A stretch of 64,000 nucleotides of DNA, taken from positions 58,468,001 through 58,532,000 of the forward strand of contig OZ076409.1 in NCBI GenBank assembly GCA_964187785.1, in the 5' to 3' direction. Shown piece after piece: positions 4,293 to 37,216 of the stretch; positions within the stretch are counted from its first letter, which is position 1; each line of letters opens with the position of its first letter. Source of the stretch: Amphiscolops sp. MND2022 (Eukaryota). The notes under the pieces were generated by a model that saw only the letters and a list, made by a program, of their open reading frames with translations, was not told the DNA's origin and searched no databases. A program made the translations under genes and the position numbers.

Positions 4293-4395
4293 CTTATCGC
4301 TTCAAATCAAATTCTTCCGAAAGTTCATTCGACACGATGTTCATGCTGACAGCAAAACGTTTCACGGTGGGGGAAGTACTTTAGTTAAAATTACG

Positions 4396-4409
4396 AGCCC
4401 TGATCAAGC
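4396..4409 (-). promoter_or_regulatory. Conserved 14-bp motif GCTTGATCAGGGCT ~100 nt upstream of the antisense gene ATG
   Basis: Identical motif at 56032-56045 (+) in D at nearly the same distance from the ATG (104 vs 102 nt), in otherwise poorly alignable DNA. Confidence 0.55.
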
Positions 4410-5090
4410 CTAGTTTTAACAGAATGAAAGAACCAACCTGTTGTTGAATCCATAGTCGTTTAACAGAATTGATCCGACCCGGAAGTTGGAAATGGCTGTT
4501 GAACTGATGAGCAGATTCTGCAATTGTGTCCAAAGTATTGCTTTGGATAATGTATCAGCTAAATGGTGTTGAGATTGCCTGAATAGACTGTAGGTCTGTA
4601 AGCTGTGTGTAACGCTAGACTTTCGGAATACCCAATAGGTAACGAAGCTGAATGAAAAGTTAGGAATTTGAATTATAACGACGGTCAATTGATGAATATG
4701 GTAGATGGAATGGAAAGACGAAAATAACAACTTTATCAAGATGTAACTCAAGGTCAGAGAGACTAGTCTGATCACAAAGTAATGCAGTCTAGCTCAAGTG
4801 AAACTACTCGAGAAAACAAATGATGAAGGAAATACTCTCTAAAGCAAAGTTCAAAGTTGTGGACGTAACGTCAGCCTGACGGCAGTGTATTACTAGTTCA
4901 CAATCAAGTAATATTCGACCAGTACTTATGCATTGGACGATGAGTCATCCTGACTGCAAGGCTTTAATTGTTACCAAATGTACTTTTATTCTACTTCCCA
5001 TACTCTTTATAACCGTACTGACTAATTATTAATTCGTACTGTCAAGTTAACGCCACAACTTAGTCTTTTTTTACTCTACTTTGTTCATTC

Positions 5091-5096
5091 TTATTA

Positions 5097-5143
<47 letters not shown>

Positions 5144-5188
5144 ATTGTTACTATTATTATTAGTATTATTATGATTGTTGTTATTATT
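5091..5188. repeat. (ATT)n microsatellite with a degenerate tail
   Basis: Run of TTA/ATT units visible directly; it produces the spurious poly-Ile ORF 5081-5272. Confidence 0.95.
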
Positions 5189-5815
5189 ACCAACTGGACG
5201 TCGTGGCTACATATAAAACGTTCTCTTGTTACCATCTCCTCATCTGCACGAATTAGATTTCCTCATTACTAATCCATGATATGGAACCTGCCAGTGAAAT
5301 ATTCATGGTCTTCCCTGTCATTTTATTTAATTATTCTTCCCTAAAATCGCATCAGATTAATTATTTCATTTCATGCTCAGAAAAATTTTCAACATATTTC
5401 TTCATTCAGATGAGCATCACCTGATTGGCTGTCATCATCATTGCCGTCGCACGGACCGACGGTCTTTCAAGTTGATTGTTGACAGAGAATCAAGAGACAC
5501 AACACTTAAATTGTTAAGTAACTCCTTTGAAGGAGTAAGCAAACTCCCTTCAAGTGGCAATTAAAATTTTGATATGATAACAACAGAATAGGCTTTGGCA
5601 ATCCCAATGAAGGCGCGAAACCTAAATAAGGAAGTTTCAGAAAACTATAGCGGGAATAGTTTCCTACTATTATCCCCGCCGAATCCGAAACCTGACCTAA
5701 GGTCACTCGGACGGCAAAAATTCATTCAACGCCCTAACAACTTTGAAATCAGTTTATTATCTCTGAATCGCTCAAAATTGCAAGAAAACTATTTCTATCG
5801 CGTTATACTAAGGAA

Positions 5816-6643
5816 ATGTCTTTGCAGTTTAACGCTGAAGGCATCAATGGACCATTAATGAGTCTCTCTTATCGTTCCTCTGATGAAGACCTGGAAGTAG
5901 ACTCAATTTACTCAGCACATGACACGGCCCCTCAGGATAGTGATGACGACGACATTCAGGTGATCGCCTGCTACTCTGAAAACCGGGAATTTCCGCCACA
6001 ATTGGCAGCGGGCAGAGCCATGACTTCGGACTTATCTGCCTGTCTTGGTTATTTAAGCCTGCCGGAAACAACGGAGACCGCCACAGAAAGTCACTTTACA
6101 GAACCATCAGCAGACTTAATAGAATGGTTCGTCGGAAGCCCACCATCGACCTACTCCGGATTGCAGCCGCAACAGCATCCCATAGCGCGATGCAGTCAGA
6201 TTGACCCAGTGTCATACTCACCAATGTCGCCGCCACTGGTCGACCAATTTCCCAACTACGCACCGAGAGACAACGAATGTGAGGCCCAAGCGGAACCGCA
6301 ATGGGCTAGGATCCAACACATTACTGGCCTGGGCATCAGTGCTAGCGGACTATGCGGACAACCTAATGACGTGCTCTACAGTGGTTGCGTTGTCTGCGGG
6401 AAATCATTTCAGGCGATAAAAGAAGAAGTGACACTTGGTTATTTAGAGAGCACCCACCTTCCGGGCGAAACGTATGATCAGCGACAATCACGACGACGAG
6501 CTTTCGAAGCTGGAATGAAAGCCGGATCTTTCATTGTCATCCCCCGGGGAGTGTCGGAGGCGGCCGCCTGCGACGGAATATTGTACCGAGTGGGGCCCGA
6601 AGACGACAATACTAACCCCGGACCAGGAATCTTACCTATTTGA
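5816..6643 (+). CDS. Element C accessory protein, 275 aa, acidic N-terminus plus CxxC, function unknown
   Basis: Homologous to 54301-55083 (-): MSLQFN/MSKFN, CVVCGKSFQAIKEE/CMVCGRAVDEIKEE, RRRAFEAGMKAGS/RREAYVNGLNAGS, AAACDG in both, C-terminal PGILPI/PGTLPIY. Confidence 0.85.
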   Translation: MSLQFNAEGINGPLMSLSYRSSDEDLEVDSIYSAHDTAPQDSDDDDIQVIACYSENREFPPQLAAGRAMTSDLSACLGYLSLPETTETATESHFTEPSADLIEWFVGSPPSTYSGLQPQQHPIARCSQIDPVSYSPMSPPLVDQFPNYAPRDNECEAQAEPQWARIQHITGLGISASGLCGQPNDVLYSGCVVCGKSFQAIKEEVTLGYLESTHLPGETYDQRQSRRRAFEAGMKAGSFIVIPRGVSEAAACDGILYRVGPEDDNTNPGPGILPI

Positions 6644-11937: not shown

Positions 11938-13334
11938 CAGATAAGAACGGAGCAACGAAAACCGCCTTTTTCAATTCTGAAAGAAATCTCGGTATCAAAC
12001 AAATTTTCATTTGTTCCAAAAATTATTTCTCTTTTTCTTGGGTGAATGTCATACCATTTGTAGTAATTTTTAGGGAATTTTTGTTTCGAGAGGTCATTGT
12101 CCGAAAAACATGAATGCATTTTAAAATGCATTTTATGATGCTATCGCAACTTTCCAAGTATTTGACCCGTGTACAGACAAAAGCGCCCCAGTCAAAAGCG
12201 CCCATTTTACAGTCATAAGCGCCCCAATGCAACACGTCTTACTAATTTTTGAGTTGACTTCATAGCCTCCAATTAAGGGTGTTTAAAAACAAGATTAGTT
12301 CACTGGTAATGCCAGATTTGACATTTTCACGTCTTCCAAATCTCTCGATTTTGGACCAAAAGTGATTACCACGAATCTTTTTTCTAAATTCTCTCCCATG
12401 ACCTCAATCAAAGAGGTCCGGATCAAAACACATGTTGAGGAAGTTTTATTTCATCAAAATGGTTTTCTCAAAGTTCTATTCAAAAGCTCCAGGCAAAAAA
12501 TATCAACAAAGCGATCAAGTTGACAGATACAAATGTTTTTTTTTCGTAAATGTTCCAGAAAATTCAATAAGTCAATTTTAAGGCAATTTTAATTATAATG
12601 ACTAATATCCAACCACAAAAATATTCAACTATAAGACAGGCGGTGCATGCTTTTATGTGAACAGGTGGTCAGAGAAGAACAGAAACGTTTTGGTCAACAA
12701 TCGCCTGAATAAGACTTTACGAATGACACGCTTACAACTCCTGGTAGATTCAACTTCCATTTTTTTCCACAGGCGTGTAGGAAGATTTCCTTGTAGGTGA
12801 AATCGGTTCAAAATGTTCATTCACGTTCTATATCCGGAAAAAGAGGTCATTTTGCCCCTTAGAAATTTGTGACAATTTCTTCTACAAAAATTCGTGACAG
12901 CTCACTGATTTTGTGCCTGATGCGCTTTGGAGAGAGTAAAGTCCCGTATTTGTTCAAATGATTCTCGAACTTTCGCAAACATTGGACTGGAACTTTCTAC
13001 CTTAGTCTATGTGAATGACAGACACCCTGATGTCAAACTTGAAATAATTGGCGTATTTGGCAAATCTAAAATCAAAAATTTCTCATGAGATAATTCAAAC
13101 CAATCTCCAATAAATTCTCCTGTTAACTTCCTTGTCTTCTTTCTGATTCGCAGAGAGAATACATGCCTTCAGAAACGTTGGTCAGCGGAAGAAACCAAAA
13201 ATAACATGAAAAGAAGCCAAAAAAATAGGTTTTATGTGAAAAATTCTGTATAATTTACAGATTTCTTCTTCATCTAGTGTATTTACCATTTCTTAGATGT
13301 CTTGTCTGATTTTGGGAATCTGCCAGGCTGCAAG

Positions 13335-14068
13335 TGTAACGACAAGCTCTCACCATTGTCGCCGTAACCATAAGAGTTAGAGGAACACATGATATGGGTA
13401 TTTGCCCGGGACAGGCGCCCATGACCATGAGCTCATTTTGCCTCTATCGGGTAAAAACTGTCCCGTCAGAGGAGGATTCCGCTTCTTGTGAAGTGCTCGC
13501 CGGCCTGATCCAGTCTGTAATTGCTATCAGTAGTGCGCATTACGCTTTTTCTTCGAAATCAACACTTAGACAGCCTTTAAAAAATGCAAGTGGTGGAAAG
13601 GAAAAATCAAGTTTTATCGAAGTTACACAGGAGATTGAAATGAGTAGCTCACGAGCTGTTACAACAAGAAAATACGAAAATTACTACATAATTAGCACTT
13701 TTGAGGCAGCAATTAGCCGGGGACACAAGCACGGATGCTTGGTCAAGCTAATTGACTCATTTTTGGTAATCACAGCGTCTTGTAACGCTTCGCTGAAGAA
13801 AGCACTGGTTAGAACAAAGTTCAGTCCGTTTTGGCAGAAATTTGAGTCTTTTTCTGATAGTGGCCGTGTTTTTCTGCAATCTTCTCGTTCGGTTGGGGTC
13901 TCTTTCGAGTCTCTTGCTCAAATCCTCTTCAATTCCGTGGACAGGTACTTGAGTAAAGACACGCTGCCGTCTGGCGGAATATGACTCTTTAGTAGAGGAG
14001 ATATAGTCCCTTGAACGAAATTTTCATCGAAATTTTCGAAATCGTGCACTCGATAGGTAGTCGCTACA
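13335..14068 (-). repeat. 3' LTR of element A (734 bp)
   Basis: Copy of 31833-32566 (offset 18498). One mismatch seen by eye (13365 T vs 31863 C); both copies translate to an identical 196-aa ORF. Confidence 0.97.
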
Positions 14069-14078
14069 TACACTCCCC
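14069..14078 (-). promoter_or_regulatory. Short polypurine tract candidate of element A
   Basis: Minus strand reads GGGGAGTGTA immediately before the TGTAGCG LTR start. Confidence 0.5.
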
Positions 14079-15078
14079 GGGGTCTAGTCTTGACGTCCCC
14101 GTCAAGTGTGGGTTGGCGTCATTGAGTCTGTACCCAGAGTCATCTGTGTCCCACTGAGGAGGTAGAGTGCACATCAAATAGCGCTGGGCGGTTCATCGAG
14201 ACATCGTCAAATTGGCCTTGTGGAAGTATTTTTGACCCAGCGTTGCTGCATTTTGATCAAATCAATACAACTTTGTACACAAATCTTATACGGCAAAGTC
14301 ATTGCTTTTTGTAGCCTGTCGTGAGCAATTCAGGCGTTAAAATTTCTTTTCGGCCATTCAAAAAAAGTTTTTATTTGCCGTTAGCGTTAAAACTTGTTTT
14401 AAGGTCAACGACCATCACATGACTGTTCGAAACATATTTTCCGAAGCTCGGGAGCTTCGCACTGCTTGGCGTTTGATAAAAGTTCTTTTGGTAAGCAGTT
14501 GCCATAAAATCAATTAATTAGTACGGTCAATTTAAAATTTCTTTTGCGAGACTTACTCTCGATCCTGTCAGGCAGCTCAAGAAAAACAATGGTCGAGGTT
14601 CATCAATCTTTTTATTCTATTCATTTCTCATCTCTCCCTCCTTGTTTCCTTTTCCTTTATCTTTTCTTTTTATCTTTTTCGACAGTGGCAACAGTGTAAA
14701 CGATAACTAGCAACTAAAAGGGTGTAATAGCACCGAAAATTTAGAGCACGGAGTGCGCACAGCGCATCCACATGTAGCATGAAGTAGCATGAAAAAGCAC
14801 TAACTGCAAACACAAATTGCAAATTGAATATTGCATCTAACTAAGGCAAGGCAAGAACGCAGTTTCATGGTTGGGTTGCCGGTCCCAAAACGGAATAACA
14901 AGGAAGATGAAGCCCGGGGGCTTCATCTCCACTCGGAGATTTTTACCCATGACCAATTGGCATTTCCATAATCGAAGCTTAGCAACAACAGAGATTGAAA
15001 CCATGAGATTTCGCAAAATTTTATCTAGCATAAGACTATTGAAGTTGGAAATTGAATGACGACAAAGTTAGTTCTGTT

Positions 15079-18000
15079 TTACTGGGTGGCAGAGGAGTGA
15101 CGCGCTCTGGGGGAAACGTCTGCCTTTGGTTGCAGTTCAGACAGAGATCCTCTTCGCGTATTTCCTCCTCGCAGGACTGGCTTTGGTTCTGCGCTGGCAG
15201 TTTCATGGGTCCTAGGAGCCGTGTTTGAGCCACCAGGGCCATTTTCTGCGGCTACCGGAGTTGATGCTTCTGGCGAATGTTCTTGCGCTGCATTGGCTGA
15301 GCCGCTAACATTGGCAGAACTTGTGGTTGATGTGGAGATTGGGATCTGTACATCCAGTCTACTAGCATTAAACAAGTGCGGTAGATCCAGCGGTCTATTG
15401 CGGGTGGCAATGGGTCGTTTCTGTTTCGCACTGAGTTTCGGGCGTAGATCAGGTCGGCCCCAGAGCCCGCAGGCTCTGGACCAGTTGTCCCTATTCGCAT
15501 GCTCTATGATTTGCCTAGAGGCTTCCCATTCGGGTCCGAGGGGATCACTTAGCAATTCCATGACGTGGTAGCAAGTCTCCGCTGGCATGTCGCTTCCCAT
15601 AGTAACCCTCGCCTCTGGATTCCAAACAGGCATTGTCAGTGGGGGGATGATTAAACCTCTTAGGCGTCCTTGGCGCTCCTCCAGGGTTCTTGACATCCAC
15701 ACGCCAAGTTTGTAGTGGTCGCGATAGGCATACTGCTCATCAAAGCCCTTCTCGACCATACTGATTGGCTTGGCCCGGATATAACCGATGGGTCCTCGCC
15801 AGTACCTGGCTGGAAGCTTAATCATTTGGAAATTGTACTCCTGATTCGTGTGACCGCCCATGGTTTGCACACACTCGGTCACGTACTTCCTGAGGTGTGC
15901 GAAACTCCAATTGAATCGCTGTGGGATTCCGAGGTGGTCTAGGGGAGAATTATACCAATTCACCGGGCCGTATTCGCGAGGTAAAGGGCACGCCTTCTTT
16001 GTTCGGGCTTTGAGAATACCGGCCAGGTTTTCGTCTTGCTGTGTCTCATTCTTTATTGTGGTATACATACGTGGTACTAGCAGAAACAGCCCACGTTCAA
16101 GCATCTGTTGATAGTTGTGTGGTTTTACGTTCTTCAGATAAGTTAGGATGGATACCGTTAACGTCTCCGAGGCCAGTCTCAGAGGCTTGGTGGGGTATCG
16201 GAGTATCCCGGTTGGGCCAAATATCGGAGTTAGCACGGGTGCTAACACCGGTATAAGATCTTCGACTTCAGCCAAAGTGAAATCTGCCAGCTGGTTGGGT
16301 GTCAAAAATCCAGCTACCTCGGTCACTAGCTGACGTCCATCATATAACGGTTGGTGCTTATCCACCCCCACGAAGAGTCCCGAGGCAAAGACCAGACTGC
16401 AATACATCCAGTGATACAATGAAGTTGTCATACGCTCCAGGTGAGCGGGATAATCCTGAGCGTCTTTCCGTTGCAACAGCTTGGCTAGGGCGGTTAGACC
16501 TGAGATATTCCCTCGTGCAATCACCAGATATGAAAATAGCCATTCCAGATTACACTCGGTAACCAGGTCAGTCAATATCATCATTGGGCCAGCTACAAAG
16601 CGTTTCTGCCCGAAAGTGAGCATCAGTGCAAAGAGTTCGTTCACCTGCACGGTACCGATAATCTCGCTGATTTCGATCAACCAACTCTCCTCTAAATCGA
16701 ACTCGACTCGAATAACATCGGGACTCCAACCCAATCCCAAACAGATGGCAAACTGGTCGGTTGACATCCCAAGCTCTTTTGCAATGTCTGCTACGGTGGT
16801 AGTTTGTAGCCGCTGGTACCAGGCGTCGTAGGTGCTGCTGAAGGCTTGGATTTCAGCCTGAGTTTCGCTCGTCAATTTAGCAGCAATGTACTTCATTCCC
16901 ACTGATAATTGATCGATTGTGAGGTCCTTGGCAATTTGAACTCGCGGGATGGCTCGTTCTACTTCTCGGTCGCTGGGGACTTTGCTCATTGTGGCAGTGA
17001 CTTCTGCAAGATCGGTTTTGATACAAGTCTTTCCACCGGATGAGCGCGCGCGCTCTATCCAGTTATTCAGGCGGATTGCCTCGCATTCGGCCGTACTGGG
17101 CTCTGGGACTCGCCTTTCTCCGTCCTTGTTGAACACCAACAAGCCCATGCGAGTGCCGTGATCAAAGTAAATGGCATCGTCGATTGTCAGCTGCGCGTTC
17201 CCTGTTTTCTCTACTGACTGTAGCACTTTAGACACTGAGGCAATGTACCCCATGTAGGACAGCCAGGAGGGGCGAAAGTCATTGGAGCTAATCCGCATAT
17301 TGGGCGCGCAGATCGCAAAGTCTATTTCTCTGCACTTGCAAACTTCTGTCACCATGTATATGAATCTCTGCAAGGCGGGGGGCCATTGGCAAAAACCTGG
17401 GGGTGTCACGAACAGGGCTGGCACCTTGAGTTTGTCTTTCAAGATGTTTTGGGCTTTCTCCATGGCTCGGGCCATGTTCAATGCTGCATTGCGTACCGTT
17501 GTTCGCTGAGCCGGACTTGGATTCATAATCTCAACGTTCGCGATCTGGGCCATTAGTCCTTCACAGGCCATGTGATCGAAAACGTTGCTGATGATCACTC
17601 TACGTGGAGGTGGCTCTTTGAAGGTTCCTGTCATCTCAGGGTCAAACATGGTGACCAACACTTCGGCCATCTCGGGAATACGTGACAGCGGTAGAGTAAA
17701 AACCATCACGTCTGACAACACGTTGTCGATGGGGACATTCTTGAGGAATGTTGAGTCAATAAGTAAGGCGAAGCGCGCACGCTGCAACCTTTCTTTTGGC
17801 ATTGGTAGCTGGGCTTCGAGATCACGGGCGTACCGTGGGTTGATCTCAAAGGTCTCTCCAGCGTTGAGGAAATATCGATCGGCGAATTGCCCACGAAGGT
17901 CAACGTTGAGGGCATCTAGGTAATTGTCATCCACGTTTGGCAGCATATTCATTGCCTTCCCTAGCCATGGCGGCTCATTGGTAGGAGTGTGGTCTGGGCG

Positions 18001-19446
18001 GATTGGACGATTCATGAATACGGGTACATTTGCCTTCTTCAGTTTCGCGTGCTCTTCGTCACTTGGAGGACACATGTTTTTCTCAAATAGCCATTCGGGC
18101 GATACTATAACTGCCGATTCCCAGATACGTCGGGAATCCTTGGTGACCAATGTGCCCTTTGTGTTCTGCATGGGGCTCAGGTACGTCGGCTGTTTCGTAA
18201 AGGTCCTCTTAGTTGGATGTTGAATCGCCTGTTTCCGGAGTGGGGTTCCAGTTGGACCACTGTTGGTCACTTTCAACCCTGGGTAATCACCCATTATGTC
18301 CTTGACAGTTCGCTGGGATACAGGGGTGCCTTGATAACCCACAGTTTGCTCCGATTGTGGCTGTCCTGACGTGGAGGGCTTAGGAGTCGCTCGTTGAGCC
18401 AGCGACTCGCGTGTTGTAGACTGCGTGGATGGTGGTTGCGGCAGTCCTTGTTGCTCGCCTGTCACGTCCGGTTGTGATTGGGGTGAGGGAAGCACGCATG
18501 CTTCCGACACTTTTGACTTCGTTTGGTCTGGCGCTTTGGAGGTTGTGGCCTTCTCGTTGGAAATCTTTTTGTCGGGTGGTGGCTTGCTCGAGGGGCTGTC
18601 ACGGGCAGTCAATGGTTGTTGAGTCTTCTTTGTTGGGGAGGGGTCGTTGCGCTTTCTGGAGGCAGGGCGGCTCTCTCCTCCCCCCTTTTGAGAAGAGCGG
18701 GAAGGCGAACGACTGCGTTCCACAGTCACGGTGCGAGAGTGTCCTGGCTGTTCAGACTGAGGATTGATGTGGGGAATAGTGATGACACCTTGACGTGTTT
18801 CAGTTGAAGTCGCATTGTCGTTACGAATAGTGACAGTGGGCAGAGCAATTCGACGTAGCTCTGGCCAACACTGCTCCATGGATCGCATGAAGTCATCGTA
18901 ATTGGGATTGGCAGCCACTGCTTGTAGCGCTGAAATGACTGCTTGCTCCGCCATAGATTGATTGGGCAGGCTAGGCACCATAGGAGCAGGAGTGCGCGCG
19001 CGCACTACTGCTTGTGGTGTTGGTACAGGAGGTGGCGGTGGAGGTGGAGGCGGGCAAGAAGGGATCTGTAAAGGTCTAGTCTGGTGGACTCCGCCATTCG
19101 CAAGACTATACGAGATCGCCGCACGATCATCTGTGAAGTGATGCGTAAGATCATGGCCGTGCCACACTCCATCTTGGTACGTCATGGATCGTTGAAATCC
19201 AGGAAACCCTGAGGTAATTGATATCGTTAGCATTGGGGCTTGCAATTGTGATTCCATCTGGGCAATTATTGCTGCTACCCCGGCCACTGCAGCTGGCGAC
19301 AGACCTTGGTCGAGTCTGTCTCGAATAAAGGCAATTTGTGGGGTGCGTTGGACACGCGCAGTGTCATAGACGCGTTGCCCCAAGGCAGGAGAGTTGTCTG
19401 TAGACCTCGGCGGGACGTTGTTGCTTCTATCATTATCTTGGTTCAT
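15079..19446 (-). CDS. Element A extra ORF in env position, ~1455 aa (frame open from 19701); Pro/Ser-rich N-terminus, SGNH/GDSL-hydrolase-like central domain
   Basis: 4.6-kb open frame between pol and the 3' LTR; likely start MNQDND at 19446. Blocks ALLIDSTFL, MVFTLPLSRIPEM, PRRVIISNVFDH, ALFVTPPG, CKCREIDF and SNDFRPSWLSY follow SGNH block order. Confidence 0.85.
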   Translation of the reverse strand: MNQDNDRSNNVPPRSTDNSPALGQRVYDTARVQRTPQIAFIRDRLDQGLSPAAVAGVAAIIAQMESQLQAPMLTISITSGFPGFQRSMTYQDGVWHGHDLTHHFTDDRAAISYSLANGGVHQTRPLQIPSCPPPPPPPPPVPTPQAVVRARTPAPMVPSLPNQSMAEQAVISALQAVAANPNYDDFMRSMEQCWPELRRIALPTVTIRNDNATSTETRQGVITIPHINPQSEQPGHSRTVTVERSRSPSRSSQKGGGESRPASRKRNDPSPTKKTQQPLTARDSPSSKPPPDKKISNEKATTSKAPDQTKSKVSEACVLPSPQSQPDVTGEQQGLPQPPSTQSTTRESLAQRATPKPSTSGQPQSEQTVGYQGTPVSQRTVKDIMGDYPGLKVTNSGPTGTPLRKQAIQHPTKRTFTKQPTYLSPMQNTKGTLVTKDSRRIWESAVIVSPEWLFEKNMCPPSDEEHAKLKKANVPVFMNRPIRPDHTPTNEPPWLGKAMNMLPNVDDNYLDALNVDLRGQFADRYFLNAGETFEINPRYARDLEAQLPMPKERLQRARFALLIDSTFLKNVPIDNVLSDVMVFTLPLSRIPEMAEVLVTMFDPEMTGTFKEPPPRRVIISNVFDHMACEGLMAQIANVEIMNPSPAQRTTVRNAALNMARAMEKAQNILKDKLKVPALFVTPPGFCQWPPALQRFIYMVTEVCKCREIDFAICAPNMRISSNDFRPSWLSYMGYIASVSKVLQSVEKTGNAQLTIDDAIYFDHGTRMGLLVFNKDGERRVPEPSTAECEAIRLNNWIERARSSGGKTCIKTDLAEVTATMSKVPSDREVERAIPRVQIAKDLTIDQLSVGMKYIAAKLTSETQAEIQAFSSTYDAWYQRLQTTTVADIAKELGMSTDQFAICLGLGWSPDVIRVEFDLEESWLIEISEIIGTVQVNELFALMLTFGQKRFVAGPMMILTDLVTECNLEWLFSYLVIARGNISGLTALAKLLQRKDAQDYPAHLERMTTSLYHWMYCSLVFASGLFVGVDKHQPLYDGRQLVTEVAGFLTPNQLADFTLAEVEDLIPVLAPVLTPIFGPTGILRYPTKPLRLASETLTVSILTYLKNVKPHNYQQMLERGLFLLVPRMYTTIKNETQQDENLAGILKARTKKACPLPREYGPVNWYNSPLDHLGIPQRFNWSFAHLRKYVTECVQTMGGHTNQEYNFQMIKLPARYWRGPIGYIRAKPISMVEKGFDEQYAYRDHYKLGVWMSRTLEERQGRLRGLIIPPLTMPVWNPEARVTMGSDMPAETCYHVMELLSDPLGPEWEASRQIIEHANRDNWSRACGLWGRPDLRPKLSAKQKRPIATRNRPLDLPHLFNASRLDVQIPISTSTTSSANVSGSANAAQEHSPEASTPVAAENGPGGSNTAPRTHETASAEPKPVLRGGNTRRGSLSELQPKADVSPRARHSSATQ

Positions 19447-19675
19447 GACGACAGTTCTGAAAGAGCGTAGGTCGATTGTAGCACACTTGATAGTAGGGTA
19501 ACACCATAGGTCATTTAAGGGTAATACCAGGGAAAGTAATAGAATGTTACACATTAACATTAAAGAAAAAGATAACGTAATAGTCTCAAATAAACTTCGT
19601 ATCGATTCACTAAACTTAATCGAGCGGACAAAAAAAAACGAAAAACAAAAAAAAGAAAGCGGACAAACGAAAGTT

Positions 19676-22600
19676 TTACGGAAAGCTAGCGACGCTTGCA
19701 ATAGATACGTAAACGCGATCGTGAAGAACGACGGTCAGGGGGGTGTCGGCGAATACGTCCATCAAACAGGCATAAAAATCAAAAAGATTACGTATTGGGC
19801 GTTCAGGATCAACGATGGCAAAGTGTACTTCTATCGCCTCCAAGCGCTCGAGTAACGTTTTCAAATGATCAAGACATCCAAAAAGAATATCAGCGAGCAT
19901 AGGGCAGCGAGGTGTAGCTCGTGTGATTAAAAGGTGGATAGTCTGAGGATGGCCGTCTATCAAAGACGTGGGTAGCGTTACAATATTGCCAACCTCCGGT
20001 CGAAGTTGAAAGATTGCATCTGCACCATGCTCACGAATGACGTAACGAAGAGCGGCAGAACTAGTTTCCAGATTTGCAGGACAACATAAAACGATATGAT
20101 GGGGAGTCTGCAGGAAGTCCGTATTGGCATACTGCACATAGTCAACCAATTGAGGTCTCGCGGCTCCATGGTACACTAACTCTCGTCCGGGGTCCTTGGA
20201 AAGAGCATCGTCACATGCATTCGGGAGGAGGCCCTTGATTGCGCCCAAATCTTGCCATACAGATCGCGGCAATGATTGATTATCAATGTTAGCCCTGGAC
20301 CATGTATCCAGTGCGTGCAGGGCCGATTGGAGGGATACAGGACTAGGAAATGAGTGTGTCCATTCGTCCAGGAATCTGATTCGTGAGAAATTTGATAAAA
20401 CTGCTATAATAAGTTCCAGCCACCATTCAAACTTAGTTTTACCACGATATAGGTCTATCGTGTGGAAACAAGTGATTTTATCAGGAGAGGCCATCGTCCG
20501 CAAACTCTCCAGACAGGTGTTCAAGTTAGTGGGATGAACCAAGTCGGATGCTTGTTTGGCCGTAACTAGTAGCCACCAGTTGCTTGTAGGCTGATAAACG
20601 TCTCCTGGTTTTACTGTGACGTTGTATTTGTCGTACAAGAGGTCAGCAGGAATACAGCGTATCATTTGGATAGGCTCTCGCTCATAGTTGAAAGGACCAA
20701 AAGCAATATTTGTAGGCAAAGGGGGAACAGTGATGGGTAAGGTGAACTCCAAACCAACAAGATCATAGGTCCACTCCTTGAACCTTGGGCACGGAGCCCT
20801 TGCTATCGTAGAATCCTTCATTTTGGATAGGATATAGTCCACGGGATATGGAGTGTCACTGCGTTGTAGCCCAGTGTAGGTTTTCTCGGCTCGAATAATC
20901 AAACGGTCAACCATTCCGCTCGGAAGTGGTTTCTCCTGTTCACGTGCTAGTAGGACTCCCTGGGATTCGATTGGGAAGCCCGCGTGGACCATGTAGTTAC
21001 ATTCGCAGTTTCGTAGGCCACATGTTCCGCAACGATATCTGGGAATACGATTGCGTCGCAGTCCATAATGAGCGTTGGTCGATTCTGGTGGTGCTGCCTG
21101 ATCTGAGGTAACCGCCGCGCTAGGGGCAGAAGAGTCAGTGTCCATTGATGGAGTGTTACGAATATGGGTAGGAGTGTTAGGTCTGGCGTGCGTTGTACGA
21201 GGAGGTCTACCTCTGGGACGGCCTCTTTTGCGAGTGCCTCTAATAGCACCTCTCCGTTGGTGACCACGTGGTAGCGAGGCTCGCGGCCTTGCTCTGCCTG
21301 GCGGACGTCCCCGGGGTCCACGCCCTCTAGAAGCATTGGGGAGTTTCGTGGTAGTAGCTGCATCATTGTTGATGGGATTTGTTACAGGGGGAATTGATCC
21401 CTTTTCGTTATTGGTCGTTGGTGTGTCGGCACCGTCGTCGTCCAGGGTTGGGTTGAGGTCATTGTCATCGATTAGGGGCCAAATGGGAAAGTTACTCAAC
21501 ATATCCGTAAGAGATGGATTTGTCAATAATGGGGCGGATGTACCGGTCAAAGAAGTGGCGGCACTTTCGGTGGGTACGTGGATATTAGGATTCGGGGCGA
21601 CATCTAATGCGTCTGGTACTGCTTCATTCTCTGAAAATAGAGCCTCCATAGCAGGTAGTGGTGATATTGGCATTTCGGGAATAGGCGCAGGCTCGTCTGC
21701 TTGTGATGGCAAGATGACACTTTCGTCAGGATTTGTTTGAGCACTCGATAGGAGTACATCAGAACGTTCATCGTCAGACTCAGTCGAAGAGTAGCCAAAT
21801 TGTTGATAATGTAGGCGGCTGCCACCTGCGCGCATGTGTGTGCGTAACCGTGTGTCCATCCAATGTCTTTGTCGAGAAGGCAAAGAGGCATCACTGGCTT
21901 CCGAAATTGGTTCCTCTGCACGGTAAGAAGGTTGTGAAGCATCGTCTCTCACCTCCTCATGGGATTGTTCTGGATCAGGGTCCATGATAATAGCAACCTC
22001 GCCGTTATGCGCAGGAACAGCTGCCCATTCTGTTGGACCACCATGATGCGGTTTCAATCGTTCGAAATGCACTTTCTGCCCAGTGTCAAGTATGTAAACA
22101 CGTCCCTCTTGTAGCACTCGTGCTACCTTGTGAGGACCACGCCACGCTCTCATCAATTTGGGAGATCCCTTTTGAGGAATGTATCGGCAGAATACCCAAA
22201 CAGGTTCGCCCACTTCGTAGGCCTTAGCACGAATTGCTCTGTCGTACTTCAATTTTTGTCGTTGTTGGGCTTGATGCGTGTTGCGACGGACTAAGTCATG
22301 AATCTCTTGTTGTCGAGCCAGCACATGTTCCACATAGGCTTCGTGTGATTCGAATGACTGAGTTGCAAATTCCGGATACAAAAAAGTCAGGGGTATAGCT
22401 TTTTCCATGCCTCTGGTCAGCATATACGGGGAAAATCCAGTAGTGGCATGACGTGTGGAGTTGTATGCACCCATAACTTCATCTAGGTACTGATCCCAGT
22501 CACGCATTCGTCTAGAGCAGAATACACGCAGTAGGGTGAGTAGCGTTCGGTTTTGTCGTTCTACCAACCCTTGAGTCCTGGGGTGGCCAGCAGTTGAGGT

Positions 22601-25600
22601 TACTTTGGTCACTTGGGCTGCTTTCATAAACTCAGCAGATACTGCCGCGGTGAAATTGGGAGCATTGTCTGACTGCATCCTCGTTGGCGTTCCATGGCGG
22701 GCAAACCACTTCTGCAACAACAACTTTGAAGTGGTCGCTGCATCGTACTCATCGTGGTTACATGGCACAGCTTCTGCGAGCTTAGAGAAATGATCGATAA
22801 TAACCAATATCCCTGTGTTACCATCATCAGAGGGACAAATTTTCATGTGGTCATATTGGACTAGCTCGTTGAAATAACCGCTTTGGATATTTTTCAAGTG
22901 AAAGCGTACATCACCAGGCTTGTCGCGTACTTGTTGACAAGTGATACATTGACTGACGTATTGTCCAATGGTGCGGCGGATGCCTGGCCAAGTGTGGCGC
23001 TCTTGAATTCTGGCCAAGACTTTCGCGATGCCCTGATGTCCCATCGCGTCGTGGGCCTTGAATAGTATCTCATGCTGATACAATTGTGGCATCACTATCA
23101 TACAGGGGCGTTCATGCAAAGCTCTTTGAGTTTTGGAGTATTTTACACACAAAATCCCGTTGGCGTTTATCAGTAGGAGGTTCTTCTTCTGTTTGTGGTA
23201 GTTTTTGGCAAAGGTGCGCACATTTTCCGGAAAGACGTCATTATCTATTGATTCTTGCATTACCAATTTCTTGATGGCCAATATATGGACGTCACGGTTT
23301 TGTGCTAGTAGTAGATCCTTCAATCCATGGACTGTGTTAGCATGTTCATGCAGTTCCATTGATATGCTGTTTACCACAAACGCGGCTTGTTTTACGTGCT
23401 CTGGTGCAGTGCTAGTTGCTTGCTTTTCCATTAGTGGGTAAGTGGTTCTTGATGGTACGTTAGCAGCATGCGTGGGGAGTAGATAGTCTCGTTGATATTC
23501 CTCGGTCAGTTCTAACCAATCCTCAGGATATTCTGGATAAAGTTCGGCGGGCAGTGTCAATTCTGGTTTTGGCAATGTAGGTAGAGGCGCTCTCATGGCT
23601 TCCTCGCGTATGGTTGCATTTCGTTTGCTTCCTCCGCTCTTTCGCGAGAGAGCGGCAACTGTGGTCTCGGGTGAACTTTGGCTACCCAACCTCTGCAAGT
23701 GTGCAGGCAATTCTGGATGATTTGGTATCACGCGTCCGTGGACGTCGAACCATGGGGCTAGCGGGAGTTTGTTATATTCCTCCTGTGACAGGAAATCCCA
23801 TTTGTCTGCAATTGCGGGTAAGCCTTTTAGTTGCTTTTCGTGTTTTTTGTAATCATTTGTTCGTTTGCTAAGACCATCAGCATTTCGATGTTGCGTTCTG
23901 GGTCGATGCTCAATGCTGAAGTGATATTTTTCAAGAGCCATAATCCATCGACCGATAATCGCCTGATCCATCGAATATGTTTTTAGCCAGGATAGGGCCT
24001 GATTATCTACCCTCAGTGTGAACTTTCGTGGACAGAGGTAACTGTGGTTTTTCAAGATGAAATAGTATGCAGCATACATTTCCAATTTTGGGGCTCCATA
24101 CTTTGCTTGCGTAGCAGTTAATTTTTTGCTTCCGAATACAATCGGTCGCAGTTTGCGACTCTCAGGTGGTCCTTGCCATTGGTGCAGAATACCCGATATA
24201 GCTACACCACTAGCATCCGTGTCGAGAACAAATTCGCCTTCAGTGTCAGGTTGCGCCAGAGCGGTGGCTTCCATTAGTGCCACTTTGATGCTGTTGAAGG
24301 CTCGCTGCTGCTCCTCCCCCCATAAAAATGAAGAGGCTCCTCCCGTTATCGCGTGTAAAGGGGCAACTAGTTTTGCATGCCATGGGATAAAATCCCGATA
24401 GTAGTTGGCAAAACCCAAGAAACTTTGCAATTCAGTTTTGGTTCGCGGGATATCCCATTCTTTCAGCTTGGTGACAGCTTTTGGATCTGGCTTGATACCA
24501 TCTGCGGATACGACCCGGCCCAAATATTTGATCTCCGATTTCATGAAGTCACACTTGGAGACTCTCATTTTGAACCCGGCCTCACGCAGGCATTGGAATA
24601 CTTCGCGTAGTCTATCCATGTGATCCTCGATGGTCTCGGTAGCAATCACAATGTCATCGATGTAGGCCATAACCATACTTCCTTCACGGTTCACTATTCT
24701 TTGTAGCGCTCGCGCTATTGCCCGTTGAAATGTTGCTGATGCGTTACACATACCAAAAGGCATACGCCGCCACTCAAATAACCCAAGTTCACAAGCGAAG
24801 GCAGTCTTTTGACGATCTGCTTTTCGGACAGGAATTTGCCAGAATGCCCATGCCAAGTCAATACTAGTATAGATTTTGGCTTTGCCCAATCTGGATAGAC
24901 TTTCATCGATACGTGGCAAGGGATAAGCGTCTTTGATGGTCACTTCATTAAGTGGTCGAAAGTCACAACAGAATCGCAATTCACCACTCTTCTTTTTGAC
25001 CATGACGATTCCACTCGCCCAAGGGGATAGAGAAGGCTGTATCATTCCCAAAGCTAGCAGGTCACGGACTTCTTGGTTTGCACGTTCTGCCTTGTCAGGC
25101 GACATTCGTCTTGCACCTTCACGGTGGGGTACAGCCCCTGGCTCTACTTCCACCGGGTGCTTGGCGATTTTACACTTACCAATATCGGCTTTGAATTTCA
25201 TAAACAAATCATCAAATTCATTCAAAAGTTTACTAAGCGTGTCGCTGGCGGTCGATCCCCACAAACCGCGCACTTCGTCGAGTTGTGCTTCCGGGCCCGG
25301 TATCGGAGCCATTAACGCCGGATCGGTTCGTTTTTTTACTTCGCGCTCGGACAAGCCTAGTTCTGACGGTTCGGTAGAGGACAAAAACTCAAATTCAGAT
25401 GAAGAACTATATTCAGAAGAGGAGTCAAGGTTCATCTGTTCGTAAACTTTACAAACATAATTTGCATTTGACTGCTGAGTTTCACTTGATTGTCCGGGGA
25501 CAATTTGGGGGATGGCTTTGTGAACCATCGTTACGGGTACCGCGGTTCCTAAAAGGGTGCCCTTTTTAATCCGCTGCACGTTGCTGGTAAGATTTCCTAA

Positions 25601-28600
25601 ACTGACGTAAAGGAAGCCAGTCTCCCCCACGGTCGCCACGGTGTCCTCTAAAAAGATGGCGTTTTTTAACATTCGGTTAGGTGTTTGGAAATTGATTAGC
25701 ACGGTTCGAAATATGAAAGGTTCTAAGTTGTCTACAAGCAGTTTAGCGCGTAGTATTGCGCGTTCAAAAGGTTGCAACACTACGTCCTGTGCAATCGCTA
25801 CCGACGAATTGAGTGATTCGTTACTTACTTGTGTGTGGGCATGGTACCACACTGGTTCAGACGGAGCTCGGACAATGACCTTCATCGCGGTTAGATCCAC
25901 CAAGACTTGATAAGCTCTTAGGAAGTTTCTGCCCAGGAGGAAGTCTTCCACTCCCATGGCGTCGTCAACTACCACGAAGTTAGTTTCCAGTTCGTAGCCT
26001 CCCAATTGGAACTTGACTTTCTCCGCTAGACCAAAAGTTTTGATCGTTTTCCCATTCGCGGCATACAAGTCAATACCATAAGGTCGTAAGAGTGTCCCAG
26101 TGCGCACAGCGACTCGATTGTAGGCTGAGAAGGTGAGGATGGACACTCCTGATCCAGTGTCTATCAGACCACGTAATGGCACGGGAGCAGCATCGGGAAC
26201 CACGAATGAAACTACGAGCGACGCACGCTCATCGATTCTCGCTTCACCAGTTGGTTCTTGAGCATCAATGTTATAGCAGCGCAGCTCCTGTGGTCCCAAG
26301 CAGATTCCAGGAGGAAATGCGTCAGTAATGATAGTGGCACCAAAACGCATGTCAACACCATCTATGCAAACTTTGACTGGAATCGGAGAATAGGCATGAT
26401 ACGTCGAAGTGACACCTTTTACCTGCCATTCTTCCGGTTGGGGCAGGGTCAATTGTCGGCAATTCTCGTTTGCGGTTATCTCGTCTATCAGGGCGTCTAT
26501 GGTGAGTTCTGGGCGGGTTTCCCTCTCAATCGCCAATAGTAATCGGACAGACATGATAGTGCGTCCCGAGGGATCAAAAGTAGTTGGCTCCGGGTTCGTC
26601 TGGATTTGAATCTTGCCACATGTGACGGTAAGGGGCGTTGCCACATGAGCGGTTTCAGCAGGACGAAGCATAAGTACCATTTCACTGTCGCTCATTGTTT
26701 GAGAAGCAGGTGGCTGTTCAGCCCAGAGGCTGTAGGCCAAATCCTCATGTACTGGAACATTTTGGCATTGTGATGCAGAGTGTTCAGTCATGCCACAATT
26801 TACACAGAATACGGGGCCAGAACATGCAGAGGCCACATTATTCTCACATAAGTTTACTCGCTCTTCAGGTGCAGCGCGAGCCGCTGGTTTCCTTGCTAGG
26901 TCTCGACTTGGGCATTCCCTTGCAAAGTGACCTGGTAGCCCACAGTTGAAGCATGCTCCTTGGGGAACCACTCTCGCTGGTTGCTGTTGTGCAGGAGCCC
27001 GTTTTACTGATGCAGGGGCTGGTGGAGCCATTTGGGGTTTAGCCTCTCGTTGTCCTTGGTTAGGAGGTAGTACGTTTTGCGGTAGGCCTGGTGCTGGATG
27101 AACCAATTTTCCTGGCACGAAAGGATGAGGCCTCGATCTCATTGCATACCTTGGGTCGTAAGGTTTTGACGTGTTTGGGCGATGCCGTTGCAATTGTCTC
27201 GTGGTGAACCTTAGGGATTCTACAGTTGGTGGTTCGGTCAGATATGCCTCTGCAGCGTATACCACGGCCAACTCTTGTCGCAGCGTCGGATCATTGACAC
27301 CATCTATAAAACGTTGCAGGATCTCATAACGACGTGTAGTGATAGGCTCATCTGGGAAACCTTGGGTGCGCAGACCTTCTAATGCGTCCAGGAATTGCAT
27401 CCAATCTTCTTTTTCCTGTTGGACACGAGACATGAAGGTTTGCCTTACGTGCATGCGATTCCCACCGGTTCCAAATCTGCTGGCCAAGAGAGAGAATACC
27501 TTGTCGGGCTCGTCTCGTTCAGGTTCAGATTTGTTGATAATATAATTTCTCGCCTCTCCTTCCAGGTGGTCGATGATAGCCCAGGCTCTGTCGATTTTTG
27601 GGGATTTTGCATGCACCCTTTCTAGAAATCGCTTCATCACTGGGAGCCATCCATCGACAGAACCATCTTTAGTGCCTTTGTATACCGTAGGGCGCACACT
27701 AGTTTGGTCTCGATTAGCAATCAGCGGTGCTAGTTCCTTGGACATGGCTTTAGATATTGCCTCGGTAAACCTGAGTTGCTCCGGTGATATAGGCGTTTCT
27801 TCGCTGATAGCTGGTGGCGGGATACTGCTGCCTCGCGTTGAGTTGACAGAGTCATCGGTGTTCTCGGGGAGAGTCACTTCTCGGCGTCGAGTACTGCTAG
27901 CGCATGGGTTGCCCGAGGGTAATTCGTCGTTCGCGGTTTGGAATTCTGCAGCTGATTCTCCCAAAGTTGCATTTGCTGTTTGGAAGGTGCTAGTGACTTC
28001 GGTTAGCATGTTTGCGCGTGTGGGCTCTCGCAGGTCGCTAATACCCATGCTTGAAGTGTCGATAGTTATCACCTCGCATGTTGGTTCTTTCTTGTGAGTT
28101 TTGGTTGTGGGTGGAATATTTTTTGTTGATACCGCAGATGGGATAAATTTCGTCGATGTTGACGCAGCTTCTCCATTTGAGACCAGAGTTTGTGGCAAGG
28201 GCACGTACCTAGCCAAGTGTTGTTTAGAGCCAGATGGGTTTGTCGAAATCGTCACACTCTCTTTTGGTTTGAGGGAGACGCTTTTCATGGGTTTTGGCAG
28301 TGATATATTAGTGTCTTGCAGCAATTCTTTGATAGTGTTGCTTACTGGTGCGGGTTGAGGTTGGATATTTTTCAACATGGTGCCCATTGCTTGTATCTGT
28401 GAACATACCTCTTGCAGTTGAGCTTCCATGCGCACCTCTCTTTCGGTCACCATGTCTTTTATTTCGGCCATTCGATAACCCATGGCATCCATTCGAGCTG
28501 CCTGAATTTCATGTCCTTGCGCTTGTCGCTCAGTCGAAGTTCGCAGTTCAGTTTGTACGGCTTCTATCTCTTCCATTATTGACTGATGCTCTCTGTCGCA

Positions 28601-29443
28601 TCTTGCTTTACGCTCAGACAGTTGTGAAGCAGCTTGCTTCACGCCTATCTGGGCATCTAACAGAGCTTTGCGTGCTTTCGCTGCTTCATGTACGGCTCGA
28701 TATGCTGAAGATCGGGCAGATGCAGCTTTTGATGAAGGTGAGGATGAGCGCGAGTCGCCATGAGGTCCTGTAGTGCCAGTCTGTGCTAGTAAGGCTGGAG
28801 GCCGTACTTGCTTACCCTTCCCAGATGCTCGGGGGGCTGTAGCTTCTTGAAGACGTGTCTTGGCATAGTTCATACCCCCGACATAGGACATTTGCTGCAA
28901 TATCTCTGCCGTGTTCGCAGTGCTCTCGCTGGCCACGCTGGGAGCTTTGAGTTGTCCAGTGGCATTCAAGCAACTCATTTCAGTTTCTTCCTCAGCGTTT
29001 GTCCTGTTGGAGTTGGGCCATGTTCCTGCTTCGTCAGTACCGAAAGGTGTGACGGCTACTTTGGTGAGTTCTTGTAACCATTTGGACGTGTGCGCCTGAC
29101 TTCCTGTTTCGTCTGCTGAACCTCCGATATCATCGGTAGTCTTGGCAACCGGCTTGGCTTGATATTCCTCCGATGCGTCGTCTGACATAGGGTCTGAAAA
29201 ATCGGGTTCCATAATGAAACTGTCATCAGTTGGCCAATCTTCCTCCTTGGGATCTGAGGTCAAGTCTGATATTGCACTGAGGTTTGTCTCGCACCCCGTT
29301 GGATCTGGTGTCTTTGATGTTTCAGTGCATCGCGAGATGTCCTTCCTCCCCCCTCTTGAATGATTAGAGCGTCGCTGGGTGTTCGCGCGGCCTAATGTTC
29401 TCGTTATGGAAATCCAAAGGTTACGCAAACTGTTGGGTTTCAT
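19676..29443 (-). CDS. gag-pol: Gag-Pol polyprotein, 3255 aa, single ORF
   Basis: CCHC knuckles CFNCGLPGHFAREC and CVNCGMTEHSASQC; protease LIDTGSG; RT YIDD; RNase H DTDASG; integrase HDAMGH..CITC, YDH/SDNAPNF/GLVERQNRTL, WRGPH; ~800-aa C-terminal extension. Confidence 0.98.
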   Translation of the reverse strand: MKPNSLRNLWISITRTLGRANTQRRSNHSRGGRKDISRCTETSKTPDPTGCETNLSAISDLTSDPKEEDWPTDDSFIMEPDFSDPMSDDASEEYQAKPVAKTTDDIGGSADETGSQAHTSKWLQELTKVAVTPFGTDEAGTWPNSNRTNAEEETEMSCLNATGQLKAPSVASESTANTAEILQQMSYVGGMNYAKTRLQEATAPRASGKGKQVRPPALLAQTGTTGPHGDSRSSSPSSKAASARSSAYRAVHEAAKARKALLDAQIGVKQAASQLSERKARCDREHQSIMEEIEAVQTELRTSTERQAQGHEIQAARMDAMGYRMAEIKDMVTEREVRMEAQLQEVCSQIQAMGTMLKNIQPQPAPVSNTIKELLQDTNISLPKPMKSVSLKPKESVTISTNPSGSKQHLARYVPLPQTLVSNGEAASTSTKFIPSAVSTKNIPPTTKTHKKEPTCEVITIDTSSMGISDLREPTRANMLTEVTSTFQTANATLGESAAEFQTANDELPSGNPCASSTRRREVTLPENTDDSVNSTRGSSIPPPAISEETPISPEQLRFTEAISKAMSKELAPLIANRDQTSVRPTVYKGTKDGSVDGWLPVMKRFLERVHAKSPKIDRAWAIIDHLEGEARNYIINKSEPERDEPDKVFSLLASRFGTGGNRMHVRQTFMSRVQQEKEDWMQFLDALEGLRTQGFPDEPITTRRYEILQRFIDGVNDPTLRQELAVVYAAEAYLTEPPTVESLRFTTRQLQRHRPNTSKPYDPRYAMRSRPHPFVPGKLVHPAPGLPQNVLPPNQGQREAKPQMAPPAPASVKRAPAQQQPARVVPQGACFNCGLPGHFARECPSRDLARKPAARAAPEERVNLCENNVASACSGPVFCVNCGMTEHSASQCQNVPVHEDLAYSLWAEQPPASQTMSDSEMVLMLRPAETAHVATPLTVTCGKIQIQTNPEPTTFDPSGRTIMSVRLLLAIERETRPELTIDALIDEITANENCRQLTLPQPEEWQVKGVTSTYHAYSPIPVKVCIDGVDMRFGATIITDAFPPGICLGPQELRCYNIDAQEPTGEARIDERASLVVSFVVPDAAPVPLRGLIDTGSGVSILTFSAYNRVAVRTGTLLRPYGIDLYAANGKTIKTFGLAEKVKFQLGGYELETNFVVVDDAMGVEDFLLGRNFLRAYQVLVDLTAMKVIVRAPSEPVWYHAHTQVSNESLNSSVAIAQDVVLQPFERAILRAKLLVDNLEPFIFRTVLINFQTPNRMLKNAIFLEDTVATVGETGFLYVSLGNLTSNVQRIKKGTLLGTAVPVTMVHKAIPQIVPGQSSETQQSNANYVCKVYEQMNLDSSSEYSSSSEFEFLSSTEPSELGLSEREVKKRTDPALMAPIPGPEAQLDEVRGLWGSTASDTLSKLLNEFDDLFMKFKADIGKCKIAKHPVEVEPGAVPHREGARRMSPDKAERANQEVRDLLALGMIQPSLSPWASGIVMVKKKSGELRFCCDFRPLNEVTIKDAYPLPRIDESLSRLGKAKIYTSIDLAWAFWQIPVRKADRQKTAFACELGLFEWRRMPFGMCNASATFQRAIARALQRIVNREGSMVMAYIDDIVIATETIEDHMDRLREVFQCLREAGFKMRVSKCDFMKSEIKYLGRVVSADGIKPDPKAVTKLKEWDIPRTKTELQSFLGFANYYRDFIPWHAKLVAPLHAITGGASSFLWGEEQQRAFNSIKVALMEATALAQPDTEGEFVLDTDASGVAISGILHQWQGPPESRKLRPIVFGSKKLTATQAKYGAPKLEMYAAYYFILKNHSYLCPRKFTLRVDNQALSWLKTYSMDQAIIGRWIMALEKYHFSIEHRPRTQHRNADGLSKRTNDYKKHEKQLKGLPAIADKWDFLSQEEYNKLPLAPWFDVHGRVIPNHPELPAHLQRLGSQSSPETTVAALSRKSGGSKRNATIREEAMRAPLPTLPKPELTLPAELYPEYPEDWLELTEEYQRDYLLPTHAANVPSRTTYPLMEKQATSTAPEHVKQAAFVVNSISMELHEHANTVHGLKDLLLAQNRDVHILAIKKLVMQESIDNDVFPENVRTFAKNYHKQKKNLLLINANGILCVKYSKTQRALHERPCMIVMPQLYQHEILFKAHDAMGHQGIAKVLARIQERHTWPGIRRTIGQYVSQCITCQQVRDKPGDVRFHLKNIQSGYFNELVQYDHMKICPSDDGNTGILVIIDHFSKLAEAVPCNHDEYDAATTSKLLLQKWFARHGTPTRMQSDNAPNFTAAVSAEFMKAAQVTKVTSTAGHPRTQGLVERQNRTLLTLLRVFCSRRMRDWDQYLDEVMGAYNSTRHATTGFSPYMLTRGMEKAIPLTFLYPEFATQSFESHEAYVEHVLARQQEIHDLVRRNTHQAQQRQKLKYDRAIRAKAYEVGEPVWVFCRYIPQKGSPKLMRAWRGPHKVARVLQEGRVYILDTGQKVHFERLKPHHGGPTEWAAVPAHNGEVAIIMDPDPEQSHEEVRDDASQPSYRAEEPISEASDASLPSRQRHWMDTRLRTHMRAGGSRLHYQQFGYSSTESDDERSDVLLSSAQTNPDESVILPSQADEPAPIPEMPISPLPAMEALFSENEAVPDALDVAPNPNIHVPTESAATSLTGTSAPLLTNPSLTDMLSNFPIWPLIDDNDLNPTLDDDGADTPTTNNEKGSIPPVTNPINNDAATTTKLPNASRGRGPRGRPPGRARPRASLPRGHQRRGAIRGTRKRGRPRGRPPRTTHARPNTPTHIRNTPSMDTDSSAPSAAVTSDQAAPPESTNAHYGLRRNRIPRYRCGTCGLRNCECNYMVHAGFPIESQGVLLAREQEKPLPSGMVDRLIIRAEKTYTGLQRSDTPYPVDYILSKMKDSTIARAPCPRFKEWTYDLVGLEFTLPITVPPLPTNIAFGPFNYEREPIQMIRCIPADLLYDKYNVTVKPGDVYQPTSNWWLLVTAKQASDLVHPTNLNTCLESLRTMASPDKITCFHTIDLYRGKTKFEWWLELIIAVLSNFSRIRFLDEWTHSFPSPVSLQSALHALDTWSRANIDNQSLPRSVWQDLGAIKGLLPNACDDALSKDPGRELVYHGAARPQLVDYVQYANTDFLQTPHHIVLCCPANLETSSAALRYVIREHGADAIFQLRPEVGNIVTLPTSLIDGHPQTIHLLITRATPRCPMLADILFGCLDHLKTLLERLEAIEVHFAIVDPERPIRNLFDFYACLMDVFADTPLTVVLHDRVYVSIASVASFP

Positions 29444-31798: not shown

Positions 31799-31816
31799 AT
31801 CCCTCTGTGGTCGCCA
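31799..31816 (-). promoter_or_regulatory. Primer-binding site of element A, tRNA-Arg-like
   Basis: TGGCGACCACAGAGGGAT resembles the complement of the 3' end of animal tRNA-Arg(TCG) (...CCCTTCGTGGTCGCCA, from memory); 16 nt inside the LTR edge. Confidence 0.75.
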
Positions 31817-31832
31817 AAAAATGATGTCTCTA

Positions 31833-36740: not shown

Positions 36741-36931
36741 CGTTGTAATCTAGCTTTATGGTTAAAGAAGTATCTCAGTACAAAACTCAATTGTTTTCTA
36801 GCTTACTATACAAGCTTTCTGATAGTAGATCATCTGCGCTTAAGTGGCAGGTATTTAAATAAAAGAACATCAAATACAAGTGTAGTAGACAGTTTATAGA
36901 CTAATCAAGTTAATTGTCTGCACTCTCTACA
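36741..36931 (-). repeat. 3' LTR of element B
   Basis: Direct repeat of 42609-42799, preceded on the minus strand by a polypurine tract. Confidence 0.93.
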
Positions 36932-37216
36932 TTTCCCCCCTCACTATTGGCTGATGTTCGGCCAATGGGGTTCTGTTCTTCTACTGTTTGGCGGTAGTCC
37001 CTCCAATGGTCCAGTTGTTTATGGACGGATGACCGATCCTCGCTTGTATGGTTGTCACGGTGAGTGTTTTCCGTGACGTCAGTTTGCTGTCCGTTGTATG
37101 GACTAGTTGAGGTTGCTTGGTTCCGTTTCCATTTGCTTCGAGTTCAGCCTTTCTACAGTGTTTCCTGTAATCATGACATACTGGGTTATTATATCTAACA
37201 ATTGGGTTAGTTTTTG

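Follow-up and report, generated by a model that had tools for sequence, protein, structure and literature searches.

What kind of protein does a retrotransposon encode when a giant third open reading frame (ORF) stands in the slot of env? This question is raised by a 64,000-nucleotide stretch of the Amphiscolops sp. MND2022 genome (contig OZ076409.1, positions 58,468,001 to 58,532,000; hereafter the window, to which coordinates refer). On its minus strand, as are all parts of the element given below, we identified a Ty3/Gypsy long terminal repeat (LTR) retrotransposon of ~19 kb, lying between LTRs at 13335-14068 and 31833-32566. Its gag-pol (19676-29554), a single frame of 3292 codons, encodes a CCHC knuckle, protease, reverse transcriptase (RT), RNase H and integrase, and the order protease-RT-RNase H-integrase is that of Ty3/Gypsy elements. 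Behind gag-pol lies ORF3 (P0001, 15079-19446), 1455 aa long and open from an ATG at 19446; the initial annotation had described an intact frame of about this size in the env slot, and we confirmed it. The stop-to-stop frame spans 15079-19734, and an in-frame ATG at 19560 would yield 1493 aa. Comparative analyses suggested that ORF3 contains an SGNH-fold domain that has likely become a pseudo-enzyme, and supported its homology to distant ORF3s in which the catalytic set is intact.

The SGNH-fold domain is predicted at aa 556-750 of ORF3 (17197-17781). Structure prediction gave a three-layer alpha/beta SGNH topology across the whole domain, which, together with a chain of sequence comparisons, supported the fold originally proposed. 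The motifs IDS, NVFDH and DFRP were found at aa 563, 621 and 723 (nt 17760, 17586 and 17280), in the register first assigned to them. We counted residues at the catalytic positions in a 124-row alignment of the window lineage, with rows that have a residue at the position as denominators. The block I Ser (S565) was retained in 53 of 56 rows. The block II Gly position is occupied by L587 in the window (Gly in 3/69 rows), and the block III oxyanion Asn position by F623 (Asn in 0/72 rows), yet a near-invariant Asn, N621, is present two places earlier. At the block V position (DxxH), R725 replaces His, with Arg in 81 and His in one of 92 rows. A separate count gave a similar picture. The suspected loss of the catalytic His was thus correct, and the changes at block II and block III came in addition, such that three of the four SGNH catalytic residues (Gly, Asn and His) are replaced in this ORF3 and Ser is kept. 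N621 belongs to a near-invariant loop (N621 in 72, D624 in 70 and H625 in 66 of 72 rows). On the basis of these alignments, the SGNH domain of the window lineage has likely turned into a pseudo-enzyme.

A protein search with ORF3 detected 18 relatives, all on ENA contigs; their clusters have as many as 657, 581, 491 and 173 members. A profile scan of 1.84 billion representatives returned 620 matches at E<=0.001; the top 150 were inspected, and most of these were fragments. ORF3 is thus conserved among relatives, with identity tiers from 95% down to about 25%. Pol identity tiers (99, 80, 64, 55 and about 50%) run parallel to these, which probably places the ORF3 homologues in sister elements. 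As judged from its conservation, ORF3 is a gene under constraint. The closest named Pol relatives were mostly fish and arachnid proteins (35-38% identity). Fragments of pol and ORF3 of this clade also occur on short contigs filed under bacterial metagenome-assembled genomes (L043, P0156), likely as host DNA carried into the bins.

More distant members were obtained from 42 metagenome loci fetched by RNase H patterns from Pol relatives. Seven (L001, L005, L006, L010, L011, L015 and L030) contained an ORF behind pol, and the remaining 35 appear, by coordinates, to end in or just past pol. These distant ORF3s are 1343 aa (L030), 1482 aa (L015) or, where the ORF runs off the locus, at least 1583-1694 aa long; those of L005 and L011 are cut short. 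Five were aligned across the domain, L005 and L006 being excluded as near-copies of L001. Ser, Gly, Asn and His were invariant in all five, and Lipase_GDSL_2 was the top Pfam match in three, below the curated cut-off. An 18-row balanced profile of the window lineage aligned collinearly with that of the distant ORF3s over the whole SGNH domain, and the match continued into the helical domain that follows it (E 0.001 local, 1.5e-5 global), with a score of 36.9 that exceeded all 60 column shuffles (maximum 26.4) and the reversed comparison (15.4). In addition, the distant-ORF3 profile matched two deep members of the window lineage, P0223 (E 6.5e-8) and P0219 (E 3.9e-7), among 328. These comparisons support homology between the window's ORF3 and ORF3s that keep Ser, Gly, Asn and His. 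The distant ORF3s are under purifying selection, with a ratio of nonsynonymous to synonymous substitution rates (dN/dS) of 0.127 for L001 versus L006, synonymous sites being near-saturated in the other four of five pairs. In a quick tree built from 51 RT-RNase H rows, a clade of 19 rows comprised L030, the L001-L015 group and the family of the window (Shimodaira-Hasegawa-like approximate likelihood ratio test (SH-aLRT) 100, stem 0.57). The window's branch lies between L030 on one side and the L001 group on the other, both of which have intact sites, so loss of catalysis in the window lineage is the simpler reading. Three of these ORF3s (L001:9403-14469, L010:12156-16904 and L015:12258-16703) also have two additional parts: around aa 830-900 a segment resembling a four-Cys zinc ribbon, and at the C-terminus a long stretch that is conserved and for which no match was found in the window's ORF3.

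One relative, P0397, appeared to contain both forms of the domain. It is 55% identical over the matched RT region and belongs to a two-member cluster, in a Pol tier that includes clusters of 2307 and 2442 members. Its truncated integrase is followed by an in-frame tail with a canonical GDSL domain (aa ~1310-1490; Pfam E 8.8e-7, PDB 2hsj E 1.4e-4), and its end (aa ~1768-1855) resembles the first half of a second, degenerate SGNH copy like that of the window. The score of this degenerate copy was reached by one of 2000 shuffles and its pairwise E value was 2.5e-4, and another comparison gave only 2.9 bits. The tail is probably the ORF3 of P0397's family.

The remainder of ORF3 has a modular layout. 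A conserved N-terminal module at aa 30-110 (19117-19359) is followed by a fast-evolving Pro/Ser/Gln/Thr-rich region at aa 130-430 (18157-19059) with conserved RKR and PPPDK motifs. The first ~430 residues had been described as disordered throughout, which fits the latter region, where 61 of 301 residues are identical to the relative P0005, and does not fit the former, where 36 of 81 are kept. Identity to P0005 is 108/215 over aa 556-770, 81/191 over aa 834-1024 and 134/321 over aa 1025-1345. A model of aa 750-1345 built from 112 sequences had a mean predicted local distance difference test (pLDDT) score of 63 and contained an all-helical domain at model positions 85-275 (aa ~834-1024; 16375-16947), where pLDDT was mostly >90. 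This domain carries the motif common to the window ORF3 and the distant ORF3s, and a search for structures similar to it found no match. The following segment (aa 1025-1345; 15412-16374) is conserved in the lineage and was modeled with low confidence. The last ~600 residues had been described as helical-looking and partly hydrophobic; they hold this helical domain, and only one 19-residue window in ORF3 exceeds a Kyte-Doolittle value of 1.5 (1.74, aa 1064-1082), and it contains three prolines. Upstream of the ATG at 19446, a pyrimidine tract with CAG (19457-19472) ends 10 nt away and forms a candidate splice acceptor; such sites precede 17 of 366 ATGs in the element. Among six distant loci checked for acceptor-like sites, TAG occurred shortly before the ORF3 ATG in all, a C[TC]TAA motif preceded it in five, and none reached the pyrimidine threshold. 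These signals modestly suggest that ORF3 is made from a spliced RNA.

The position of ORF3 in the env slot, with this acceptor-like site ahead of it, might point to a divergent Env or other fusogen. In addition, a start at the ATG at 19560 would give the protein a short leader that is hydrophobic (mean 2.63 over 12 residues), and the weakly hydrophobic segment near aa 1064 recurs in all four lineage members checked (1.74-2.28). However, the N-terminus from the ATG at 19446 is polar, and the leader is missing from the called ORFs of sister families, whose members of 1426 and 1435 aa begin at the position that corresponds to that ATG. Neither a furin-type R-x-K/R-R site nor a C-terminal transmembrane anchor, both hallmarks of Env, was found in P0001, which has 18 Cys in 1455 aa, and three of four distant ORF3s had no hydropathy window >1.6. 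Of the two folded parts, one is predicted to be helical and the other to be an alpha/beta SGNH domain, and no fusion-glycoprotein fold was among the matches listed in the structure comparisons, in which aa 1-429 lay outside the models and aa 1025-1345 were of low confidence. A fusogen is therefore highly improbable. Viral fusion-glycoprotein domains are present in two more distant Gypsy polyproteins, P0412 and P0421.

We tentatively favor, at somewhat less than an even chance, a role of ORF3 as a non-catalytic, cytosolic and non-fusogenic adaptor that would hold particles or RNA complexes of the element on membranes. This choice was made because the ZfL2-1 esterase, the sole tested retroelement esterase, binds lipid without its active site, and a dead but conserved domain fits such a role. 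The initial annotation had suggested a membrane-interacting or particle-trafficking protein in place of Env, and these functions would likewise follow from analogy with ZfL2-1. ORF3 would be expressed from a spliced RNA; catalysis would have been lost on the branch leading to the window's family; the dead SGNH domain, like the ZfL2-1 esterase with its active site mutated, would bind acyl chains or the surfaces of anionic lipids; and the helical domain and disordered arms would link it to particles, which may benefit by being sorted to vesicles or germ cells. Several observations weigh against this proposal. Piecewise comparisons between the window lineage and the distant ORF3s were weak, and searching with the profile of the window lineage failed to recover the distant ORFs, both of which count against homology. 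The node that joins the two large groups of the clade had a support of only 80 in the quick tree, which weakens the case for loss of catalysis. Finally, an RNA-binding role like that of Oskar stays close behind, given that the domain is neutral in charge and that the disordered arm has basic motifs that are conserved: ORF3 could be a nuclear or germ-granule RNA scaffold, in which the dead SGNH domain binds RNA, the disordered arms condense, and the element's RNA is exported, protected or shielded from silencing. We regard this as possible but doubtful, considering that the Oskar match was no better than those of ordinary esterases, that the SGNH domain is not basic overall, that the 'NLS-like' (nuclear localization signal-like) character of one motif is a reading by eye, and that the one tested retroelement esterase, ZfL2-1, did not bind oligo-A RNA.

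The domain could also still be an enzyme with a rebuilt active site, in which S565 is the nucleophile, the N621-D624-H625 loop provides the base, and lipids or O-acyl groups are the substrates. S565, N621, D624 and H625 are the best-kept polar residues, and the SGNH fold places block III next to the nucleophile. However, the H625 column contains D, Y, E or L in 6/72 rows, among them those of the deep relatives P0219 and P0186. Neither oxyanion-hole position keeps its usual residue, and the Asp-Ser of block I and the Asp of block III serve structural functions as well. In P0397, a separate intact GDSL domain stands beside the window-like copy, as if the two had different jobs. We consider a rebuilt enzyme quite unlikely. 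A different possibility is suggested by the C-terminus of Pol, where a macro-like domain was detected (Pol aa 3131-3277; 19724-20164). It matches the C-terminal domains of P0400, P0401, P0402 and P0404 with probabilities of 96-97 and E values of 1e-8 to 2e-10 (96.9 and 2e-10 against tails that match Pfam Macro), and the three of these that were scanned match Pfam Macro (E 6e-5 to 1e-3). Viral macro domains counter ADP-ribose defenses, and the family is very abundant; ORF3 and the macro-like domain might jointly act on the host, in counter-defense or by manipulating a signaling or modification pathway. However, no analysis suggested a host target, the window's macro-like domain is divergent and has no Pfam match, and two of the examined Pol tails of the clade (P0391 and P0406) show no macro domain; we consider a host-directed function unlikely. 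By sequence comparison, the clade often pairs a macro domain in Pol with an SGNH ORF3. A possible second macro-like copy, weakly supported, lies just upstream of Pol aa 3131-3277, and P0429, a more distant Gypsy polyprotein, has a macro domain between RNase H and integrase.

Related arrangements are known. SGNH/GDSL ORF3s downstream of pol, as well as catalytically degenerate retroelement GDSL ORFs, are already in print (Rodriguez et al. 2017, PMC5408684). The former occur in bdelloid Vesta LTR retrotransposons, which are likewise of Ty3/Gypsy type with a non-Env, SGNH-containing ORF3 behind pol, and for which a membrane role was proposed, not shown. However, a Vesta ORF measures about 1.3 kb and keeps its catalytic residues, whereas the window's ORF3 is 4.4 kb, multi-domain and has three of four residues replaced. 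Vesta, compared by description only, has a dUTPase between protease and RT, where the window's segment has no Pfam match; weak Herpes_ORF11 matches (E 0.03) were seen in two of 18 relatives when looking for dUTPase. The ZfL2-1 esterase, an SGNH domain borne by a retroelement (CR1/L2/RTEX ORF1p; Schneider et al. 2013, PMC3905857), attaches to liposomes and anionic lipids, and mutation of its active site leaves lipid binding in place, but it is part of ORF1 of a non-LTR element and has a conserved active site, neither of which applies here. Athena-L Terminons carry a GDSL derivative without catalytic residues, but are Penelope-like rather than LTR elements, and the portion consulted mentions no helical partner domain (PMC5408684). 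In Oskar, the OSK domain reuses the SGNH fold for binding and adjoins a disordered region (PMC6191285, PMC7250577). Burro elements of planarians are also giant Gypsy elements with accessory coding capacity, but have Env homology inside the polyprotein (PMC6431247), and the 412/MDG1-group elements are Env-less Gypsy elements whose accessory sORF2 is, in contrast to ORF3, a short transmembrane protein (bioRxiv 10.1101/2025.03.14.642691); an SGNH domain is reported for neither in the parts consulted. Our literature search, with repeat databases and supplements outside its scope, found no clade that combines a macro-tailed Pol with a multi-domain SGNH ORF3 of 1300-1700 residues whose orthologues include both intact and degenerate ones.

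The LTRs of the element (3' LTR, 13335-14068; 5' LTR, 31833-32566) are direct repeats of 734 nt with TG...CA ends and differ at one of 734 bases; therefore, the insertion is recent. A polypurine-tract-like stretch, assigned by its position, lies just inside the 3' LTR (14069-14082), and a primer-binding-site-like TGG motif (31807-31816) lies 16 nt inside the 5' LTR and does not adjoin it. In the single copy with flanks, the flanks share only a 3-bp direct match (13332-13334 and 32567-32569), compared to the usual Ty3/Gypsy target-site duplication of 4-6 bp; this match may reflect chance, recombination between copies or a trait of the clade. A 2.3-kb leader without a long ORF (29555-31832) separates the 5' LTR from gag-pol, and a 1-kb trailer (14069-15078) follows ORF3. 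Elsewhere in the window, we observed another Gypsy element (36742-42805), whose pol contains stops and whose LTRs measure 196 nt (98%), a third, distant Gypsy pol that runs off the window (60622-64000), and a unit of three ORFs that is present in two diverged copies of opposite orientation (29-6643 and 54301-60371; 36%, 29% and 30% identity between matching ORFs), has no clear Pfam family and looks like an unclassified transposon.

Retroelements of several classes have repeatedly acquired SGNH esterases, and the consulted parts of the two esterase reports (PMC5408684, PMC3905857) leave the question of why, and of whether catalysis is required or lipid binding suffices. The present clade supplies natural orthologues with and without the catalytic set, and one protein with both, in elements so young that their LTRs are near-identical; therefore, this question is testable with purified natural domains. 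A bolder scenario, unlikely as a whole, is that of an undescribed, widespread Gypsy clade defined by its giant ORF3. The ancestral ORF3 would have joined an active lipid esterase to a helical domain with a new fold, and the protein would carry particles across membranes without Env, a third route of spread beside Env and sORF2; the esterase would have become a pure binding module here and a sister family would have gained a second, active esterase, leaving a series from enzyme to pseudo-enzyme. Two further additions are a helical domain of ~190 residues, predicted with confidence and without structural match, and a group of Gypsy elements in which a macro domain frequently forms the end of Pol. 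At hundreds of copies, 19-kb elements of this kind would form a large share of a host genome, with an ORF3 that is invisible to Pfam.
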